This document shows positions 3,183 through 23,304 of a stretch of 64,000 nt of DNA, one piece after another. Positions within the stretch are counted from its first letter, which is position 1; every line of letters starts with the position of its first letter. The stretch lies in the NCBI RefSeq assembly GCF_056746865.1, contig NZ_CM163382.1; one strand, given 5' to 3'. The position numbers and the translations under genes were made by a program. Under the pieces are notes generated by a model that saw nothing but the letters and a program-made list of their open reading frames with translations, was not told the origin of the DNA and made no database searches.

Positions 3183-5730
3183 ACCGGTAGGCGATCTGGT
3201 CGTTGATTTAAGTCTGGATGCGGCCAGATTTGACGAGCAGATGGCCAGAGTCAGGCGTCATTTTTCCGGTACGGAAAGTGATGCGAAAAAAACAGCGGCA
3301 GTCGTTGAACAGTCGATGAACCGGCAGGCGCTGGCTGCACAGAAAGCGGGAATTTCCGTCGGGCAGTATAAAGCCGCCATGCGTATGCTGCCTGCGCAGT
3401 TCACTGACGTGGCCACGCAGCTTGCAGGCGGGCAAAGTCCGTGGCTGATCCTGCTGCAACAGGGGGGGCAGGTGAAGGACTCCTTCGGCGGGATGATCCC
3501 CATGTTCCGGGGGCTTGCCGGTGCGATCACCCTGCCGATGGTGGGGGCCACCTCGCTGGCGGTGGCGACCGGAGCGCTGGCGTATGCCTGGTATCAGGGC
3601 AACTCAACCCTGTCCGATTTCAACAAAACGCTGGTCCTTTCCGGCAATCAGGCGGGACTGACGGCAGATCGTATGCTGGTCCTGTCCAGAGCCGGGCAGG
3701 CGGCAGGGCTGACGTTTAACCAGACCAGCGAGTCACTCAGCGCACTGGTTAAGGCGGGGGTAAGCGGTGAGGCTCAGATTGCGTCCATCAGCCAGAGTGT
3801 GGCGCGTTTCTCCTCTGCATCCGGCGTGGAGGTGGACAAGGTCGCTGAAGCCTTCGGGAAGCTGACCACAGACCCGACGTCGGGGCTGACGGCGATGGCA
3901 CGCCAGTTCCATAACGTGACGGCGGAGCAGATTGCGTATGTTGCTCAGTTGCAGCGTTCCGGCGATGAAGCCGGGGCATTGCAGGCGGCGAACGAGGCCG
4001 CAACGAAAGGGTTTGATGACCAGACCCGACGCCTGAAAGAGAACATGGGCACGCTGGAAACCTGGGCAGACAGGACAGCACGGGCATTCAAATCCATGTG
4101 GGATGCGGTGCTGGATATTGGTCGTCCTGATACCGCTCAGGAGATGCTGATTAAGGCAGAGGCTGCGTTTAAGAAAGCAGACGACATCTGGAATCTGCGC
4201 AAGGATGATTATTTTGTTAACGATGAAGCGCGGGCACGTTACTGGGATGATCGTGAAAAGGCCCGTCTTGCGCTTGAAGCCGCCCGAAAGAAGGCTGAGC
4301 AGCAGAGTCAACAGGACAAAAATGCGCAGCAGCAGAGCGATACCGAAGCGTCACGGCTGAAATATACCGAAGAGGCGCAGAAGGCTTACGAACGGCTGCA
4401 GACGCCGCTGGAGAAATATACCGCCCGTCAGGAAGAACTGAACAAGGCACTGAAGGACGGGAAAATTCTGCAGGCAGATTACAACACGCTGATGGCGGCG
4501 GCGAAAAAGGACTATGAAGCGACGCTGAAAAAGCCGAAAGGCGTGAAGGTGTCTGCGGGCGATCGTCAGGAAGACAGTGCTCATGCTGCCCTGCTGACGC
4601 TTCAGGCAGAACTCCGGACGCTGGAGAAGCATGCCGGAGCGAATGAGAAAATCAGCCAGCAGCGCCGGGATTTGTGGAAGGCAGAAAGTCAGTTCGCGGT
4701 ACTGGAGGAGGCGGCACAACGTCGCCAGCTGTCCGCACAGGAGAAATCCCTGCTGGCGCATAAAGACGAGACGCTGGAGTACAAACGCCAGCTGGCTGTA
4801 CTTGGCGACAAGGTCACCTATCAGGAGCACCTGAACGCGCTGGCGCAGCAGGCGGATAAGTTCGCACAGCAACAACGGGCAAAACGGGCCGCCATTGATG
4901 CAAAAAAACGGGGGCTGACTGACCGGCAGGCAGCGCGGGAAGCCACGGAACAGCGCCTGAAGGAACAGTATGGCGATAATCCGCTGGCGCTGAATAACGT
5001 CATGTCAGAGCAGAAAAAGACCTGGGCGGCTGAAGACCAGCTTCGCGGGAGCTGGATGGCAGGCCTGAAGTCCGGCTGGAGTGAGTGGGAAGAGAGCGCC
5101 ACGGACAGTATGTCGCAGGTTAAAAGTGCTGCCACGCAGACCTTTGATGGTATTGCACAGAATATGGCGGCGATGCTGACCGGCAGTGAGCAGAACTGGC
5201 GCAGCTTCACCCGTTCCGTGCTGTCCATGATGACAGAAATTCTGCTTAAGCAGGCAATGGTGGGGATTGTCGGGAGTATCGGCAGCGCCATTGGCGGGGC
5301 TGTTGGTGGCGGCGCGTCCGCGTCAGGCGGTACAGCCATTCAGGCCGCTGCGGCGAAATTCCATTTTGCAACCGGAGGATTTACGGGAACCGGCGGCAAA
5401 TATGAGCCAGCGGGGATTGTTCACCGCGGTGAATTTGTCTTCACGAAGGAGGCAACCAGCCGGATTGGCGTGGGGAATCTCTACCGGCTGATGCGCGGCT
5501 ATGCCACCGGTGGTTATGTCGGTACACCGGGCAGCATGGCGGACAGCCGGTCGCAGGCGTCCGGGAAGTTTGAGCAGAATAACCATGTGGTGATTAACAA
5601 CGACGGCACGAACGGTCAGATAGGGCCACAGGCGCTGAAGGCGGTTTATGACGTAGCCCGTAAGGCGGCAATGGATGTTGTGACCGGGCAGATGCGTGAT
5701 GGTGGTCTGTTCTCCGGAGGTGGACGATGA
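3175..5730 (+). CDS. Tail tape measure protein H (851 aa)
   Basis: 851-aa ORF, coiled-coil-rich, with a C-terminal glycine-rich segment; lambda H-like size and position after G-T. Confidence 0.9.
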   Translation: MAEPVGDLVVDLSLDAARFDEQMARVRRHFSGTESDAKKTAAVVEQSMNRQALAAQKAGISVGQYKAAMRMLPAQFTDVATQLAGGQSPWLILLQQGGQVKDSFGGMIPMFRGLAGAITLPMVGATSLAVATGALAYAWYQGNSTLSDFNKTLVLSGNQAGLTADRMLVLSRAGQAAGLTFNQTSESLSALVKAGVSGEAQIASISQSVARFSSASGVEVDKVAEAFGKLTTDPTSGLTAMARQFHNVTAEQIAYVAQLQRSGDEAGALQAANEAATKGFDDQTRRLKENMGTLETWADRTARAFKSMWDAVLDIGRPDTAQEMLIKAEAAFKKADDIWNLRKDDYFVNDEARARYWDDREKARLALEAARKKAEQQSQQDKNAQQQSDTEASRLKYTEEAQKAYERLQTPLEKYTARQEELNKALKDGKILQADYNTLMAAAKKDYEATLKKPKGVKVSAGDRQEDSAHAALLTLQAELRTLEKHAGANEKISQQRRDLWKAESQFAVLEEAAQRRQLSAQEKSLLAHKDETLEYKRQLAVLGDKVTYQEHLNALAQQADKFAQQQRAKRAAIDAKKRGLTDRQAAREATEQRLKEQYGDNPLALNNVMSEQKKTWAAEDQLRGSWMAGLKSGWSEWEESATDSMSQVKSAATQTFDGIAQNMAAMLTGSEQNWRSFTRSVLSMMTEILLKQAMVGIVGSIGSAIGGAVGGGASASGGTAIQAAAAKFHFATGGFTGTGGKYEPAGIVHRGEFVFTKEATSRIGVGNLYRLMRGYATGGYVGTPGSMADSRSQASGKFEQNNHVVINNDGTNGQIGPQALKAVYDVARKAAMDVVTGQMRDGGLFSGGGR

Positions 5731-6056
5731 AAACCTTCCGCTGGAAAGTGAAACCGGGTATGGATGTGGCTTCGACTCCTTCCGTCAGGGAGGTGCGCTT
5801 TGGTGATGGTTACTCCCAGCGCGCGCCTGCCGGGCTGAATGCCAACCTGAAAACGTACAGCGTGACGCTTTCTGTCCCCCGTTGGGAGGCCACGGCGCTG
5901 GAATCGTTTCTGGCAGAGCACGGAGGCTGGAAAGCCTTTCTGTGGACGCCGCCTTATGACTGGCGGCAGATAAAGGTGATCTGCGCAAAATGGACGTCGC
6001 GGGTCAGTATGCTGCGTGTTGAGTTCAGCGCAGAGTTTAAACAGGTGGTGAACTGA
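5727..6056 (+). CDS. Tail tip protein M (109 aa)
   Basis: 109-aa ORF overlapping the H stop; lambda M length and order. Confidence 0.85.
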   Translation: MKTFRWKVKPGMDVASTPSVREVRFGDGYSQRAPAGLNANLKTYSVTLSVPRWEATALESFLAEHGGWKAFLWTPPYDWRQIKVICAKWTSRVSMLRVEFSAEFKQVVN

Positions 6057-6754
6057 TGCAGGATATCCGGCAGGAAACACTGAATGAATGCACCCGTGCG
6101 GAGCAGTCGGCCAGCGTGGTGCTCTGGGAAATCGATCTGACAGAGGTCGGTGGTGAACGTTATTTTTTCTGTAATGAGCAGAACGAAAAAGGTGAGCCGG
6201 TTACCTGGCAGGGGCGGCAGTATCTGGCGTATCCCATTCAGGGGAGTGGTTTTGAACTGAATGGCAAAGGCACCAGTACGCGCCCCACGCTGGCAGTCTC
6301 TAACCTGTACGGTATGGTCACCGGGATGGCGGAAGATCTGCAGAGTCTGGTCGGCGGAACGGTGGTCAGGCGTAAGGTTTACGCCCGTTTTCTGGATGCG
6401 GTGAACTTCGTCAACGGAAACAGTGACGCCGATCCGGAGCAGGAGGTGATCAGCCGCTGGCGCATCGAGCAGTGCAGCGAACTGAGCGCGGTCAGTGCCT
6501 CCTTTGTGTTGTCCACACCAACGGAAACGGATGGTGCTGTTTTTCCGGGGCGCATCATGCTGGCCAACACCTGCACCTGGACCTATCGCGGTGATGAGTG
6601 CGGTTATAACGGTCCGGCTGTCGCGGATGAATATGACCAGCCGACGTCCGATATCACGAAGGATAAATGCAGCAAATGCCTGAGCGGCTGTAAGTTTCGC
6701 AATAACGTCGGCAACTTTGGCGGCTTCCTTTCCATTAACAAACTTTCGCAGTAA
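6056..6754 (+). CDS. Tail tip protein L (232 aa)
   Basis: 232-aa ORF; C-terminal cysteine cluster (CTWTYRGDECGY...CSKCLSGCKF) typical of lambda L. Confidence 0.85.
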   Translation: MQDIRQETLNECTRAEQSASVVLWEIDLTEVGGERYFFCNEQNEKGEPVTWQGRQYLAYPIQGSGFELNGKGTSTRPTLAVSNLYGMVTGMAEDLQSLVGGTVVRRKVYARFLDAVNFVNGNSDADPEQEVISRWRIEQCSELSAVSASFVLSTPTETDGAVFPGRIMLANTCTWTYRGDECGYNGPAVADEYDQPTSDITKDKCSKCLSGCKFRNNVGNFGGFLSINKLSQ

Positions 6755-6759
6755 ATCCC

Positions 6760-7503
6760 ATGACACAGACAGAATCAGCGATTCTGGCGCACGCCCGGCG
6801 ATGTGCGCCAGCGGAGTCGTGCGGCTTCGTGGTAAGCACGCCGGAGGGGGAAAGATATTTTCCCTGCGTGAATATCTCCGGTGAGCCGGAGGCGTATTTC
6901 CGTATGTCGCCGGAAGACTGGCTGCAGGCAGAAATGCAGGGTGAGATTGTGGCGCTGGTCCACAGCCACCCCGGTGGTCTGCCCTGGCTGAGTGAGGCCG
7001 ACCGGCGGCTGCAGGTGCAGAGTGATTTGCCGTGGTGGCTGGTCTGCCGGGGGACGATTCATAAGTTCCGCTGTGTGCCGCATCTCACCGGGCGGCGCTT
7101 TGAGCACGGTGTGACGGACTGTTACACACTGTTCCGGGATGCTTATCATCTGGCGGGGATTGAGATGCCGGACTTTTATCGTGAGGATGACTGGTGGCGT
7201 AACGGCCAGAATCTCTATCTGGATAATCTGGAGGCGACGGGGCTGTATCAGGTGCCGTTGTCAGCGGCACAGCCGGGCGATGTGCTGCTGTGCTGTTTTG
7301 GTTCATCAGTGCCGAATCACGCCGCAATTTACTGCGGCGACGGCGAGCTGCTGCACCATATTCCTGAACAACTGAGCAAACGAGAGAGGTACACCGACAA
7401 ATGGCAGCGACGCACACACTCCCTCTGGCGTCACCGGGCATGGCGCGCATCTGCCTTTACGGGGATTTACAACGATTTGGTCGCCGCATCGACCTTCGTG
7501 TGA
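6760..7503 (+). CDS. Tail tip assembly protein K (JAB/MPN HSHPGG motif plus NlpC/P60-like region)
   Basis: 247-aa ORF containing HSHPGG; overlaps I by 103 nt as lambda K/I do. An alternative shorter start at the ATG at 6904 would give 199 aa. Confidence 0.75.
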   Translation: MTQTESAILAHARRCAPAESCGFVVSTPEGERYFPCVNISGEPEAYFRMSPEDWLQAEMQGEIVALVHSHPGGLPWLSEADRRLQVQSDLPWWLVCRGTIHKFRCVPHLTGRRFEHGVTDCYTLFRDAYHLAGIEMPDFYREDDWWRNGQNLYLDNLEATGLYQVPLSAAQPGDVLLCCFGSSVPNHAAIYCGDGELLHHIPEQLSKRERYTDKWQRRTHSLWRHRAWRASAFTGIYNDLVAASTFV

Positions 7504-8072
7504 AAACGGGGGCTGAAGCCATCCGGGCACTGGCCACACAGCTCCCGGCGTTTCGTCAGAAACTGAGCGACGGCTGGTATCAGGTACGGATTGCCGGGCG
7601 GGACGTCAGCACGTCCGGGTTAACGGCGCAGTTACATGAGACTCTGCCTGATGGCGCTGTGATTCATATTGTTCCCAGAGTCGCCGGGGCCAAGTCAGGT
7701 GGCGTATTCCAGATTGTCCTGGGGGCTGCCGCCATTGCCGGATCATTCTTTACCGCCGGAGCCACCCTTGCAGCATGGGGGGCAGCCATTGGGGCCGGTG
7801 GTATGACCGGCATCCTGTTTTCTCTCGGTGCCAGTATGGTGCTCGGTGGTGTGGCGCAGATGCTGGCACCGAAAGCCAGAACTCCCCGTACACAGACAAC
7901 GGATAACGGTAAGCAGAACACCTATTTCTCCTCACTGGATAACATGGTTGCCCAGGGCAATGTTCTGCCGGTTCTGTACGGTGAAATGCGCGTGGGGTCG
8001 CGGGTGGTCTCTCAGGAGATCAGCACGGCAGACGAAGGGGATGGTGGTCAGGTTGTGGTGATTGGTCGCTGA
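7401..8072 (+). CDS. Tail assembly protein I (223 aa)
   Basis: 223-aa ORF with ubiquitin-like N-terminus and glycine/alanine-rich hydrophobic middle; lambda I length and position. Confidence 0.8.
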   Translation: MAATHTLPLASPGMARICLYGDLQRFGRRIDLRVKTGAEAIRALATQLPAFRQKLSDGWYQVRIAGRDVSTSGLTAQLHETLPDGAVIHIVPRVAGAKSGGVFQIVLGAAAIAGSFFTAGATLAAWGAAIGAGGMTGILFSLGASMVLGGVAQMLAPKARTPRTQTTDNGKQNTYFSSLDNMVAQGNVLPVLYGEMRVGSRVVSQEISTADEGDGGQVVVIGR

Positions 8073-8091
8073 TGAAAAACGTTTATGTGAA

Positions 8092-8112
8092 ACCGCCTCC
8101 GGGCGGTTTTGT
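8092..8112 (+). other. Short GC hairpin between I and J (aaccgcctccgggcggtttt)
   Basis: Inverted repeat ACCGCC/GGCGGT followed by a T-run in the I-J intergenic gap; could be a weak attenuator or mRNA-stabilising structure. Confidence 0.35.
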
Positions 8113-8131
8113 CGTTTATGGAGCGTGAGGA

Positions 8132-11100
8132 ATGGGTAAAGGCAGCAGTAAGGGGCATACTCCGCGCGAAGCGAAGGACAACCTGAAGTCCACGCAGTTG
8201 CTGAGTGTGATCGATGCCATCAGCGAAGGGCCGGTTGAAGGTCCGGTGGATGGATTAAAAAGCGTGCTGCTGAACAGTACGCCAGTGCTGGACAGTGAGG
8301 GGAATACCAATATCTCCGGCGTCACGGTGGTGTTCCGGGCCGGTGAGCAGGAGCAGACACCGCCGGAGGGATTTGAATCCTCCGGCTCCGAGACGGTGCT
8401 GGGTACGGAAGTGAAATACGACACGCCGATCACCCGGACCATCACGTCGGCAAACATTGACCGACTGCGTTTTACCTTCGGCGTGCAGGCACTGGTGGAA
8501 ACCACCTCAAAGGGGGACAGGAATCCGTCGGAAGTCCGCCTGCTGGTTCAGATCCAGCGTAATGGTGGCTGGGTGACGGAAAAAGACATCACCATTAAGG
8601 GCAAAACCACCTCGCAGTATCTGGCCTCGGTGGTGGTGGGTAACCTGCCGCCGCGCCCGTTCAATATCCGGATGCGCAGGATGACGCCGGACAGCACCAC
8701 AGACCAGCTGCAGAACAAAACGCTCTGGTCGTCATACACCGAAATCATCGATGTGAAACAGGGCTACCCGAACACGGCACTGGTCGGCGTGCAGGTGGAT
8801 TCGGAGCAGTTCGGCAGCCAGCAGGTGAGCCGTAATTATCATCTGCGCGGGCGCATTCTGCAGGTGCCGTCGAACTATAACCCGCAGACGCGGCAATACA
8901 GCGGTATCTGGGACGGAACGTTTAAACCGGCATACAGCAACAACATGGCCTGGTGTCTGTGGGATATGCTGACCCATCCGCGCTACGGCATGGGGAAACG
9001 TCTTGGTGCGGCGGATGTGGATAAATGGGCGCTGTATGTCATCGGCCAGTACTGCGACCAGTCAGTGCCGGACGGCTTTGGCGGCACGGAGCCGCGCATC
9101 ACCTGTAATGCGTACCTGACCACACAGCGCAAGGCGTGGGATGTGCTCAGTGATTTCTGCTCGGCGATGCGCTGTATGCCGGTATGGAACGGGCAGACGC
9201 TGACGTTCGTGCAGGACCGACCATCAGATAAGGTGTGGACCTATAACCGCAGTAATGTGGTGATGCCGGATGATGGCGCGCCGTTCCGCTACAGCTTCAG
9301 CGCCCTGAAGGACCGCCATAATGCCGTTGAGGTGAACTGGATTGACCCGAATAACGGCTGGGAGACGGCGACAGAGCTTGTGGAGGACACGCAGGCCATT
9401 GCCCGTTACGGTCGTAACGTCACGAAGATGGATGCCTTTGGCTGTACCAGCCGGGGGCAGGCACATCGCGCCGGGCTGTGGCTGATTAAAACAGAACTGC
9501 TGGAAACGCAGACCGTGGACTTCAGCGTGGGCGCAGAAGGGCTTCGCCATGTGCCGGGCGATGTCATTGAAATCTGTGATGATGACTATGCCGGTATCAG
9601 CATCGGCGGGCGCGTGCTGGCGGTAAACAGCCAGACCCGGACGCTGACGCTCGACCGTGAAATCACGCTGCCATCCTCCGGTACCACGCTGATAAGCCTG
9701 GTTGACGGAAGTGGCAATCCGGTCAGCGTGGAGGTTCAGTCCGTCACCGACGGCGTGAAGGTGAAAGTGAGCCGTGTTCCTGACGGCGTTGCTGAATACA
9801 GCGTGTGGGGGCTGAAGCTGCCGACGCTGCGCCAGCGCCTGTTCCGCTGCGTGAGTATCCGTGAGAACGACGACGGCACGTATGCCATCACCGCCGTGCA
9901 GCATGTACCGGAAAAAGAAGCCATCGTGGATAACGGGGCGCACTTTGACGGCGACCAGAGCGGCACGGTGAATGGTGTCACGCCGCCAGCGGTGCAGCAC
10001 CTGACTGCCGAAGTCACCGCAGACAGCGGGGAATATCAGGTGCTGGCGCGCTGGGACACGCCGAAGGTGGTGAAGGGTGTGAGCTTTATGCTTCGCCTGA
10101 CCGTAACAGCGGATGACGGCAGTGAGCGGCTGGTCAGCACGGCCCGGACGATGGAAACCACTTACCGCTTCACACAACTGGCGCTGGGGAACTACAGGCT
10201 GACAGTCCGGGCAGTAAATGCGTGGGGGCAGCAGGGCGATCCGGCGTCGGTATCGTTCCGGATTGCCGCACCGGCAGCGCCGTCGCGGATTGAGCTGACG
10301 CCGGGCTATTTTCAGATAACCGCCACGCCGCATCTTGCGGTTTATGATCCGACGGTACAGTTTGAGTTCTGGTTCTCGGAAAAGCGGATTGCGGATATCA
10401 GGCAGGTTGAAACCACAGCACGCTATCTTGGCACGGCGCTGTACTGGATAGCCGCCAGTATCAATATCAAACCGGGCCATGATTATTACTTTTATATCCG
10501 CAGTGTGAACACCGTTGGCAAATCGGCATTCGTGGAGGCTGTCGGTCAGCCGAGTGATGATGCATCAGGCTATCTGGATTTTTTCAAAGGAGAAATCGGG
10601 AAAACACATCTGGCCCAGGAGCTGTGGACGCAGATTGATAACGGTCAGCTTGCGCCTGACCTGGCTGAAATCAGGACGTCCATTACGGATGTCAGCAATG
10701 AAATCACACAGACCGTCAATAAGAAACTGGAAGACCAGAGTGCAGCGATCCAGCAGATACAGAAAGTTCAGGTTGATACAAATAATAACCTGAACAGCAT
10801 GTGGGCTGTGAAGCTGCAGCAGATGCAGGACGGACGCCTTTATATTGCGGGTATCGGTGCCGGTATTGAGAACACCCCTGACGGCATGCAGAGTCAGGTG
10901 CTGCTGGCGGCAGACAGGATTGCGATGATTAATCCTGCGAATGGCAACACAAAACCGATGTTTGTTGGTCAGGGCGATCAGATATTCATGAACGACGTGT
11001 TCCTGAAACGCCTGACGGCCCCCACCATTACCAGCGGTGGAAATCCACCGGCATTTTCCCTGACACCGGACGGAAAGCTGACCGCTAAAAATGCGGATAT

Positions 11101-20331: not shown

Positions 20332-23304
20332 TTACCAGTGCACTCCAATGGTGAGAAACGCGTTGTTGCGCTCTCCGTTACGTTGATTAATCGCCTTAAA
20401 GGTATGTTGATATTCGACGCCGAGACTGACTTTGTGCGGCCAGGCGTCGTAGTGCGTCTCGCCGGTCCAGATATTCCAGCGGACCCCGACACCGCCAAGC
20501 TGCGCGCCCTGAGTGCCTTTATCACGATAACCGTTGTCCTGAACGTGAGCGTAAGGCTCAATAGTCTGCCCGTTCGCCACCTTCTGATGCCAGCTGACGC
20601 GATAATCTGCCGTCCACGCCTGAATATCCTGACGGACATATTGCGCCGCATCGAGGTACAGGTTTTGGGCAAACCAGCCTGAACCGTTCGGGTGCCATTC
20701 GTCGCTGTATTTGCCGCCATTAAAGAATGAGGCGCTGGCGCGCAGCATGGTATCGGATGCGCCATTTTGCCCGTTCAGCGGCAACTGCTGTTCGACGGCG
20801 AGGAAAAAGATCTGATCGCGCAGCGGCTTCCAGCGCAGACCGGTGCCGGACATCGGATTTTTCACCGGCATCATCACCCCGTTTTCTCCGGTATCGGCAA
20901 AGACGCGGCTATAAACTGAGAGCAGGTCGCCTTCCAGCAGCATATTGCGTCCGATGCGGTACTCGGCTTCCAGTTGCCCATAGCTACGATAGCTTTTCCC
21001 TGGCGCTGCGCCGCCGACATTATTGTTAGCGGTACTCATTGCGCCGGAACGCAAGCCGATAGAAGAATCGAAACTGAACGTCCAGCGGCGACCGACCTCC
21101 TCATGCAGACGGCGGAAATTGAAGCGTTGCTGATTTTGCTCTGGGGTCAGTGGGGTTATCAGCGCCTGATTATCAATGTCATCAATCACCAGCCGGGCGT
21201 AGTGCTGCGTCGCAGGCATGTCATCCAGACGCTGGTTCACGTAGGCCAGTTGTCGGATAAGTGCCGGATCGTCCGGTAGCCCTTTATGCGCCTGTTCGAG
21301 CATTTCCCGCGACTGTGCGATATCACCGCTATCCCACAAGGCGTAACCAAGCGCTGCCTGGGTGTTGCTATTATTCGGTTCCAGTTCCAGCGCGGCGCGC
21401 AAATCACTCACCGCCGCCGGGACATTATGACGTTGGCGATAAATTGTCGCCCGCGCAACGTAAGCGTTGGCAGAAGGCGCAATATTGATTGAGCGCGTGA
21501 GATCGTTCAGTGCGAGTTCCGGCTGACCAGGAATGTAACGTTGCGCATGCAGCCACCAGTAGAGGGCATTGTTTCCCAGCCCACGTTGTTCTGCCTGCTG
21601 AAGCCAGCGATCGCGAGCCGCACCATTTCCTGCCGCCTGGGCGGTATTGGCAGCAGCAAGCAGATCCTCATTGCTCATGTCGTGAAGACTGATTTTCTGC
21701 CAGGCCGCCAGTGCGGTGGCGTAGTCCTCAACCTGATACGCCTGATAGGCTACCGCACGATGTTGCCAGGCGTTCGGTTGTCGTTGTTCGGCCTGAAGCC
21801 ATGCATACAACGCCACACCGGGTAGCGTGTCCCGATAACACTTTGCCAGACGGTTCCAGGCGGCAGCATCGTAGGAAGGCGACATATCGCCCAGCAAGCG
21901 AACTATTGCCGGGCAATTATCTGCAATACCCGGCAACTGACTTTGCCACTGACGTTGCTCCGCCAGCGGTAAGGGTTTCGATAAAATCGCCACCTTCGCC
22001 GGAGTTGCCAGGTAAGGATGACTTTCCAGCAGAGACGCCAGTCGCGCCATTAACGTCTGGCTGACACGCGCATCGCCCTGGAAAGGATAGCGTTGCAGCA
22101 ATAAATCGGCAGCTTCGCGTGACTGCTCGTTCTGCATCAGTTGCCAGGTCAGTTGATCCAGGCGGGTAAGATTTGCCGGTTCTTGCTGATACAGCAATCG
22201 TGCCAGACGCAGAGCTTCAGCCTTGTTACGGGTCGCCACGCTAACGGTATAACGCTCCTCAAGCATTTCATTGGCGGGGAGGGTGGCGAGCAGTTTTTGC
22301 GCTGCGTCGTACTGACCTTCTTTTAACAGCACCGGTAGCGTCGCGCCAACAACATACTGGCGGTTATCGGCAAACTGTACCGTATAATTCGCCAACGCCA
22401 GAACGGGGTTGGCGCTGTATTTAGATAACAGATAGAGCCAACTTTTCTCTTGTGCATCCGTGGTAAACAGCGGCTTATTTTCAATGAGATAACGCTGGAG
22501 GCGTGCTTTTTCGTCACGATAAGCCAGCGCGGTCGCGTAAGTAATATATGACTGCGGATCGGTGAAGATCCCCTGTGATTGCAGCGCCAGGATCCGATCG
22601 TCCAGCTGCCCGGCAAGAAGCACATCAAACCACTGGCGGCGTTCTGCCGCGCTTAATGTGTTCTGCTGGCGTGCTTCATTGTATAGCGTATCTGCCTGGG
22701 ACCATTGCTTCAGGTAGATTGCCCGTTGCAGCAGATCGGTTCGCAGCGTTTTTCCTTCCGGCGATGCAGCAAACGTCGCATCGTTCAGTTGCGCTCTGGC
22801 GACAGGTAATTGTGCCAGCCGCAGGGCATTCTGCCCAACTTCACTGCGACAACGCAGGGTCGGCGCAGCATCGCACGCTTTTTGCTGGGCAAGCAGTTCT
22901 TCAACAGTCGTAACGCTTTTCACTTCAACTGGAATAGCCGCCAGACTGCGCTCAAGTCGGGCATCTCCTGGGTGACGTTTCAGTTGATCCTCAAGCAACA
23001 GCCGCGCCCGGTCATCATGACCAAAATGGCGATAGGCTTCCGCAAGGTATAAAGTTAGCGGAATATTATCCGGCACCTGCTGGTGTATATATTCAAATTC
23101 GCGGATGGCGGTTGCTTCGTCGTTATTTTTCTGTGCCTTCAGCGCCTTGTCGAGACGGGGATAAATAACAAAATGGCGATAATCGCTCAGCCCCAGCTCT
23201 TCTGCGCTGGTGCCGATATTGTCTGCGAGTGCGCTGGTACTCAATAAAGACGTCAGCAGTAAACCAGACCATCCGATGACGCGATTAAGGTTATTCTCCT
23301 TCAT
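20332..23304 (-). CDS. nfrA: NfrA: TPR-repeat periplasmic domain plus C-terminal outer-membrane beta-barrel (990 aa)
   Basis: ORF track gives 997 aa; start placed at MKENNLNRVIGWSGLLL (ATG at 23304) to match E. coli NfrA; C-terminus ends ...NAFLTIGVHW, typical of an outer-membrane barrel. Confidence 0.9.
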   Translation of the reverse strand: MKENNLNRVIGWSGLLLTSLLSTSALADNIGTSAEELGLSDYRHFVIYPRLDKALKAQKNNDEATAIREFEYIHQQVPDNIPLTLYLAEAYRHFGHDDRARLLLEDQLKRHPGDARLERSLAAIPVEVKSVTTVEELLAQQKACDAAPTLRCRSEVGQNALRLAQLPVARAQLNDATFAASPEGKTLRTDLLQRAIYLKQWSQADTLYNEARQQNTLSAAERRQWFDVLLAGQLDDRILALQSQGIFTDPQSYITYATALAYRDEKARLQRYLIENKPLFTTDAQEKSWLYLLSKYSANPVLALANYTVQFADNRQYVVGATLPVLLKEGQYDAAQKLLATLPANEMLEERYTVSVATRNKAEALRLARLLYQQEPANLTRLDQLTWQLMQNEQSREAADLLLQRYPFQGDARVSQTLMARLASLLESHPYLATPAKVAILSKPLPLAEQRQWQSQLPGIADNCPAIVRLLGDMSPSYDAAAWNRLAKCYRDTLPGVALYAWLQAEQRQPNAWQHRAVAYQAYQVEDYATALAAWQKISLHDMSNEDLLAAANTAQAAGNGAARDRWLQQAEQRGLGNNALYWWLHAQRYIPGQPELALNDLTRSINIAPSANAYVARATIYRQRHNVPAAVSDLRAALELEPNNSNTQAALGYALWDSGDIAQSREMLEQAHKGLPDDPALIRQLAYVNQRLDDMPATQHYARLVIDDIDNQALITPLTPEQNQQRFNFRRLHEEVGRRWTFSFDSSIGLRSGAMSTANNNVGGAAPGKSYRSYGQLEAEYRIGRNMLLEGDLLSVYSRVFADTGENGVMMPVKNPMSGTGLRWKPLRDQIFFLAVEQQLPLNGQNGASDTMLRASASFFNGGKYSDEWHPNGSGWFAQNLYLDAAQYVRQDIQAWTADYRVSWHQKVANGQTIEPYAHVQDNGYRDKGTQGAQLGGVGVRWNIWTGETHYDAWPHKVSLGVEYQHTFKAINQRNGERNNAFLTIGVHW

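Follow-up and report, generated by a model that had tools for sequence, protein, structure and literature searches.

Gene K of a lambda-like prophage very probably encodes a 247-residue two-peptidase protein, and the 199-residue annotation of lambda K traces to one G missing from the 1982 reference sequence

In 2006, Iyer, Burroughs and Aravind described TAPK, a phage tail protein that joins a JAB domain to an NlpC/P60 domain and adjoins TAPI, whose N-terminal ubiquitin fold resembles ThiS/MoaD and closes with a conserved glycine, and they predicted that the JAB domain of TAPK releases the ubiquitin-like domain of TAPI (PMC1779556). Later virion data fit this prediction. The lambda protein gpK is required for tail assembly and is absent from the virion (PMC10721106, PMC12617516). 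It was missing from virion mass spectrometry in a study in which gpI could be modelled only from residue 135 and whose supplements list one gpI peptide, with no position given (PMC10721106); other models of gpI begin at residue 134 (PMC12617516) and at residue 101 (PMC11101478). According to the meeting summary of a 2025 talk, gpK clips the ubiquitin-like N-domain off gpI. A comparable pair, likened to gpK and gpI by description as their homologs, is PA0639/PA0640 of the F-type pyocin, which is a tailocin and not a phage; its tip cannot be assembled without the gpK homolog, which is missing from mature particles, and the pyocin study named no responsible protease.

Here, we have analysed gene K in a window of 64,000 nucleotides (contig NZ_CM163382.1 of assembly GCF_056746865.1), where it is complete and belongs to a lambda-like prophage (Table 1). 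The gene order H-M-L-K-I-J is that of lambda, the DNA of the region is 99.7–100% identical to lambda and lambda-like phages (99.7–99.8% against lambda), and matching prophages are present in 4,363 of 5,426 complete E. coli genomes. The window K is identical at 246 of 247 residues to K of the lambda record PV340536, the sole substitution being Y140H. The product of the preceding gene matches Pfam Phage_tail_L with 332 bits. The original prediction had described a 247-aa reading frame whose ATG begins 6 nt past the last base of the L stop codon and which includes residues upstream of an HSHPGG motif, and this is what the list of reading frames and the sequence hold: the L–K spacer is ATCCC (5 nt), and HSHPGG occupies K residues 68–73. 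It had also named the product of a downstream ATG as the classical lambda K. That in-frame ATG at 6904 is codon 49, 144 nt (48 codons) further on, and the 199-aa product starting MSPEDW is indeed the K of J02459 (14276..14875, 'tail component;199'). The long form of gpK, whose sequence includes MTQTESAILAHAR, would have a mass of ~28 kDa, and the short form ~23 kDa. Thus the same gene has a 199-aa reference and Swiss-Prot entry in lambda (TIPK_LAMBD / NP_040598), whereas in the window, as in most of the lambda-like sequences that we fetched, it is intact at 247 aa. The 247-aa K is annotated by PGAP (WP_000194783.1; one E. coli genome checked) and in OQ243220, PV340577, PV340536, Tritos, ev207, ASU11 and WGPS2. 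We argue from comparative sequence analysis that K is very probably a two-peptidase protein of 247 residues read from ATG 6760, and that the 199-residue annotation stems from a G missing in the reference.

Table 1. Positions of genes, domains and sites around gene K in the window
Feature	Position	Strand	Remarks
Gene L (minor tail / tail tip protein, 232 aa)	6056..6754	+	TAA stop 6752-6754
Gene K, full-length	6760..7503	+	ATG, 247 aa; JAB/MPN+ plus NlpC/P60 tail-tip assembly peptidase
JAB/MPN+ (JAMM) metalloprotease domain, K residues 3-104	6766..7071	+	Pfam PF14464
Glu19 codon, upstream catalytic Glu of JAMM motif	6814..6816	+	absent from 199-aa form
Internal GGAGG (6888-6892) and in-frame ATG 6904 (Met49), legacy 199-aa start	6888..6906	+
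G missing from J02459/NC_001416	6894	+	after reference position 14266; loss frameshifts K
Zinc-binding JAMM motif HSHPGGLPWLSEAD	6961..7002	+	H-x-H-x7-S-x2-D (H68, H70, S78, D81)
NlpC/P60 (C40) cysteine peptidase domain, K residues 111-224	7090..7431	+	Pfam PF00877, Cys121 codon 7120-7122
Gene I (223 aa)	7401..8072	+	N-terminal ubiquitin-like domain, Gly-rich and hydrophobic linker, C-terminal tail-tip plug
K/I overlap, 103 nt	7401..7503	+	K residues 214-247; I residues 1-34 in +2 frame
Ubiquitin-like (beta-grasp) domain of I, residues 14-97	7440..7691	+	begins upstream of GTG 7500

The protease domain of K is complete only in the long form. Against curated Pfam cut-offs of 25 bits for Prok-JAB and 23 for NlpC/P60, the 247-aa K matches Prok-JAB (PF14464) with 52.3 bits over profile positions 3–112 of 114, whereas the 199-aa K reaches 23.3 bits over positions 63–112 only, which is under the cut-off. 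The preference voiced beforehand for the longer form, as the one with a complete JAB/MPN fold, is supported by this comparison. All members of the JAMM catalytic set (E19, H68, H70, S78 and D81) are present in the window K, and the codon of Glu19 is GAG in 82 of 82 close relatives. In an alignment of 41 homologous proteins with 32–59% identity to K, residues G22, N38, H68, H70 and D81 are invariant and P17, E19, C21, F47 and S78 are conserved in at least 90%, while Met49 is not conserved, being I, V or L in distant homologs. That Glu19, P17, C21, G22 and N38 all lie before Met49 agrees with the earlier view that the JAB fold needs the upstream residues. An AlphaFold2 model of K made with the 41 homologs (pLDDT 95.6, pTM 0.90) places a helix at residues 3–15 and strands at 21–27 and 30–36 within residues 1–48. 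The 199-aa product would hold half a JAB domain (residues 49–105) and is unlikely to fold. Since an active JAMM site needs Glu19, the gpI-processing function would require the long form.

Structural comparison of the model places each half of K beside a known class of peptidase. One half was matched by Foldseek to PfJAMM1 (5LD9/5LDA), Rpn11, CSN5 and 2KKS, with a probability of 1.00 for 5LD9, Rpn11, CSN5 and 2KKS, and the other half to MepS/Spr, Acd33800 and other NlpC/P60 enzymes. PfJAMM1, solved with the ubiquitin-like SAMP2, and DSY2949 (2KKS) share with K the fold and the E...HxHx7Sx2D motif, at target-normalised TM scores of 0.63–0.66 and an rmsd of ~2.9 Å over 111–113 columns. With 2KKS, a JAB protein of solved structure, the alignment spans K residues 7–105, AHARRCAPAESCG of K pairing with AHARQALPNEACG of 2KKS. 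The substrate of these JAMM enzymes is a ubiquitin-like beta-grasp domain, the same as the presumed substrate of K. Unlike the prokaryotic JAMM enzymes, however, K has its JAB domain fused to an NlpC/P60 peptidase, identity is only ~20–25%, and the presumed substrate of K is part of a structural protein of the phage, to which it is linearly fused, whereas that of the JAMM enzymes is a conjugate. The NlpC/P60 part of K matches the full PF00877 profile (1–105 of 105) with 48.3 bits; among the 41 homologs Cys121 is at least 90% conserved, and His187 and His199 are invariant. It shares PF00877 and the Cys-His-His triad with the E. coli C40 enzyme MepS/Spr (Foldseek TM ~0.6, also for Acd33800), but K has no signal peptide or cell-wall-binding domain and would act, if at all, intracellularly during tail assembly. 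The TAPK family has the identical two-domain architecture, directly upstream of an I protein with an N-terminal beta-grasp domain, as here, and we see no structural difference between it and the window K; start codons and reference sequences are not discussed in its description (PMC1779556). The mechanism predicted for TAPK, in which the JAB domain frees the ubiquitin-like domain, is predicted to apply directly to the window K.

Comparison with relatives suggests that the 48 codons ahead of Met49 belong to the protein. Searched in full with HMMER, 1.84 billion cluster representatives yielded 1,733 relatives of K at E ≤ 1e-10. Those with 35–51% identity are 230–260 aa long and have alignments that begin at query residue 1–15, and homologs down to ~32–35% identity still align from the same residues. 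For the close relatives we combined 10 annotated phage loci with 80 IMG/VR loci, the related-locus search having used a 13-sequence alignment of close K relatives, and aligned the resulting 86 distinct sequences with MAFFT. ATG 6760 is kept in 84 of the 86; of the remaining two, one is a contig that is truncated and the other has a junction upstream that differs. In the close relatives, the variable sites within codons 1–48 number 15, 12 and 36 at the first, second and third codon positions, and pN/pS is 0.27, compared with 0.12 for codons 49–213. Judged from these substitution patterns, codons 1–48 are under purifying selection.

The packing of the tail genes points the same way. The H/M junction is a 4-nt overlap, M/L a 1-nt overlap and L/K a 5-nt gap, whereas a start at 6904 would leave a gap of 149 nt after L against neighbouring junctions of −4, −1 and +5 nt. 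Synteny around K is the same in homolog loci at 36–51% identity: at two of them (37–51% identity) the start of K and the stop of L share 4 nt, and at a third (36%) K starts 11 nt past the stop of the preceding gene. If the classical annotation were right, K would be 199 aa long and begin at 6904, and positions 6760–6903 would be untranslated or a separate small reading frame. K is so annotated in J02459, NC_001416, OM418625 and TIPK_LAMBD, and a Shine-Dalgarno (SD) sequence does stand upstream of 6904. Yet the 144 nt ahead of it vary by codon position in the K frame, at the pN/pS given above, and encode the catalytic Glu and half a domain that is kept in homologs at ~32–35% identity; the short form falls under the Pfam JAB cut-off, the gap would sit in an otherwise tightly packed operon, and the annotation itself is accounted for by a 1-nt omission in the reference. 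We give this reading, already contradicted by the comparative data, practically no credence. The original prediction had held the choice of start to be undecidable from sequence alone, which was too cautious: the comparison of related sequences favours ATG 6760 and, to our mind, settles it, and it is from this comparison that we infer the start. A literature search on the K start found nothing, nor did the literature yield N-terminal sequencing, mass or ribosome-profiling data for gpK.

The 199-aa annotation of lambda K traces to one G missing in the 1982 reference. Aligned at window position 6894, the reference reads GGAGGCTATT and the window GGAGGCGTATT. In J02459, ATG 14133 (the equivalent of window 6760) opens a reading frame of 76 aa with its stop at 14363; its first 45 residues are those of the window K, and the frame is shifted thereafter. 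Because the missing G puts the first 45 codons off-frame, annotators could take only the first ATG past the break, and both J02459 and its RefSeq copy NC_001416 carry K from there (the UniRef name for the sequence is TIPK_LAMBD). Among the 86 distinct sequences, J02459/NC_001416 stand alone both in the deletion at 6894 and in having a frame-breaking single-base indel at the JAB domain. An independently deposited lambda genome, LC730321, differs from J02459 at 15 places over the whole genome, one of which is an extra G after 14266. Among its 14 further differences are the loss of a G at 138 and the gain of a C at 20832, the latter in what we take to be the stretch where laboratory lambda carries its known stf frameshift. 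For commercial cI857 Sam7 lambda DNA, a G insertion at 14266 is, we assume, listed relative to J02459.

It is conceivable that the G was truly lost by mutation in the 1982 stock, splitting K into parts of 76 and 199 aa and implying that laboratory growth does not need the JAB domain. Four records are without the G (J02459, NC_001416, OR474059 and OR974322), and the internal SD and ATG could in principle express the 199-aa part. The four are not independent witnesses, however: NC_001416 is a copy of J02459; OR474059, an UNVERIFIED record of an engineered strain, and OR974322, whose coordinates are identical to those of the reference, look reference-derived, the latter being probably reference-guided. 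In these last two records the absence of the G was judged by match length (860 against 861 bases). Every other sequence of the region that we fetched has the G, among them OM418625, LC730321 and PV340536, which are records of lambda or lambda hybrids. Judged by match length (861 against 860), the other lambda stocks and hybrids KT232076, EU078592 (DE3), OM418626-7 and HK629/630 have it as well. Moreover, K is one of the essential tail genes, and its JAMM residues are invariant or at least 90% conserved. We therefore regard a genuine mutation of the stock as very improbable, if slightly less so than the classical start. A literature search on the discrepancy at 14266 found nothing, and the MutaMouse lambda-gt10 paper and a lambda mutation-rate preprint are silent on the site.

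The short form also spreads independently of the lambda reference. About one quarter of the automated gene calls in the protein database, thousands of them from public assemblies, are the 199-aa K (clusters P0058, P0060, P0065 and P0066, with thousands of members apiece), presumably due to the internal GGAGG ahead of ATG 6904.

Only in its initiation signals does the short start seem, on paper, to be the better one. We calculated the pairing of each start region to the 3' end of 16S rRNA, and the folding energy of a 60-nt window (−30 to +30) against background windows taken every 3 nt across 3200–11600. ATG 6904 has an SD energy of −9.5 kcal/mol at a spacing of ~10 nt, within the top 3% of positions, whereas 6760 has none (+0.7 kcal/mol). 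The order is reversed for structure: the fold at 6760 is −7.2 kcal/mol, among the 2.7% least structured, and that at 6904 is −22.8 kcal/mol, at the 90th percentile, with the GGAGG paired to an upstream CUCC in the minimum free energy structure, a weak prediction with an ensemble frequency of 0.07. The corresponding values at the L start (6056) are −7.2 kcal/mol for SD and −9.4 kcal/mol for the fold. Two GTG codons, 6829 and 6868, were rejected as K starts; with either, Glu19 is lost, the SD is weaker (−6.1 and −5.5 kcal/mol) and the spacing is long.

In view of the strong SD at 6904, two isoforms could be made in the manner of lambda C/Nu3 or S107/S105, one of 247 aa from 6760 and one of 199 aa from 6904, the latter effectively an NlpC/P60-only protein with a separate role. 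ATG 6904 is kept in 74 of the 86 close relatives, gene callers choose it in thousands of contigs, and TAPK proteins with the NlpC/P60 domain only do exist in some phages (PMC1779556). In the other 12 of the 86, however, it is replaced by ATC, ATT, ATA or CTG, so that M49I is a natural variant of K, while the GGAGG stays (one GGAAG apart). Since the GGAGG encodes the conserved Pro43-Glu44 and persists in sequences that have lost the ATG, it is explained by coding constraint. The I, V or L at residue 49 of distant homologs, the stable fold around 6904 and the half domain left in the 199-aa product likewise tell against a second isoform. On balance we find two isoforms improbable. The more specific proposal, that the internal start makes a 199-aa NlpC/P60-only isoform with a candidate role in cutting the tape measure gpH down to gpH*, a cleavage stated as uncatalogued (PMC12617516), seems to us a shade less probable again. 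Low-level initiation at ATG 6904 is unlikely, and as the main start it probably does not serve.

How ribosomes could begin K at 6760 is suggested by its position. Ribosomes ending L at its TAA would probably re-initiate 6 nt on, at 6760, in an unusually unstructured A/U-rich stretch that has no SD. The tail genes appear packed for translational coupling, and we infer such coupling between L and K. Read from 6760, K would be a non-structural assembly enzyme, as the literature has it, whose JAB domain may cut the N-terminal ubiquitin-like domain from gpI after gpI joins the tail-tip complex; in virions only the C-terminal part of gpI is seen. The cut would be expected near PRVAGAKSGG(101) of gpI.

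It is now the start of gene I, and not that of K, that is inconsistently annotated. The 103-nt overlap of K and I had been part of the original prediction, and it stands when I is read from 7401, though PGAP and some phage records start I later. The 223-aa form from ATG 7401 is used by J02459 and several phage records; GTG 7500, giving 190 aa and a 4-nt overlap with K, is used by PGAP in E. coli genomes and by PV340577 and PV340536; ev207 starts I 66 nt after 7401; and one review gives gpI as 190 residues. The candidate N-termini of the gpI precursor are MAATHT..., MARICL... and MKTGAE.... Read from 7401 or 7440 (223 or 210 aa), I matches Pfam Lambda_tail_I (PF06805) with 100 bits over profile positions 2–83 of 83, whereas from GTG 7500 the match covers positions 26–83 only, at 68.8 bits, 31 bits less, and the GTG 7500 start truncates the ubiquitin-like domain. 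Among the 86 sequences, ATG 7401 is present in all 86, position 7440 is CTG in 8 and position 7500 is GTA in 10. An SD sequence, GAGAGG, lies at 7384–7389 (−9.3 kcal/mol), and the local structure at 7401 is open (−7.3 kcal/mol); neither ATG 7440 nor GTG 7500 has an SD or open structure, and both are less supported as starts. ATG 7401 is thus the better supported start of I, and the 103-nt overlap is well supported, or an overlap of no less than 64 nt should I begin at 7440.

K and I do not overlap everywhere: homolog loci at 36–51% identity share 61, 46 or 0 nt between the two genes. The pN/pS of the overlap among 82 relatives is 0.19 in the I frame against 1.05 in the K frame, values that are descriptive only since both frames code and interpretation is hard; the constraint seems unevenly shared between the two frames. 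Within the overlap, the C-terminus of K forms a confident AlphaFold2 helix (residues 230–243) that is conserved in distant homologs.

Further features were noted around these genes. A promoter and terminator scan of 5500–8500 gave counts no higher than background. Between I and J, a hairpin at 8079–8126 with the core GAAACCGCC-UCCG-GGCGGUUUU, followed by a U-rich run, has a minimum free energy of −20.8 kcal/mol and a z-score of −2.46; it is unlisted by the simple terminator scan and looks like a terminator within the late operon. The reading frame of J, the central tail fibre, runs from 8132 to 11629 and encodes 1165 aa against 1132 aa in lambda. As K and I are near-identical to lambda and J differs, we have here a mosaic prophage whose receptor-binding end is not that of lambda. 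A further reading frame lies beyond the tail genes at 11684–14059, and 14347–64000 holds many long reading frames on both strands, presumably the rest of the prophage and host chromosome. No tRNA genes were found in the window.

We would like to point out that gene K is itself an ordinary gene whose nature is already known: its JAB and NlpC/P60 domains were published in 2006, and activity on gpI has been reported. What is added here is the cause of the discrepancy between 247 and 199 residues, which is a matter of annotation hygiene, since J02459, NC_001416, TIPK_LAMBD, OM418625 and PMC7291167, which quotes K as '199 in total', still use the 199-aa K. In that product the protease domain lacks both its catalytic Glu and its first three elements of secondary structure. 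K cloned by reference coordinates would give a crippled protein, and ribosome-profiling or proteomic data mapped to the reference would show a frame break in K. Gene I is similarly affected, as several pipelines start it too late. In each of the two genes a functional domain is truncated, in K by the coordinates derived from the reference and in I by those of the pipelines.
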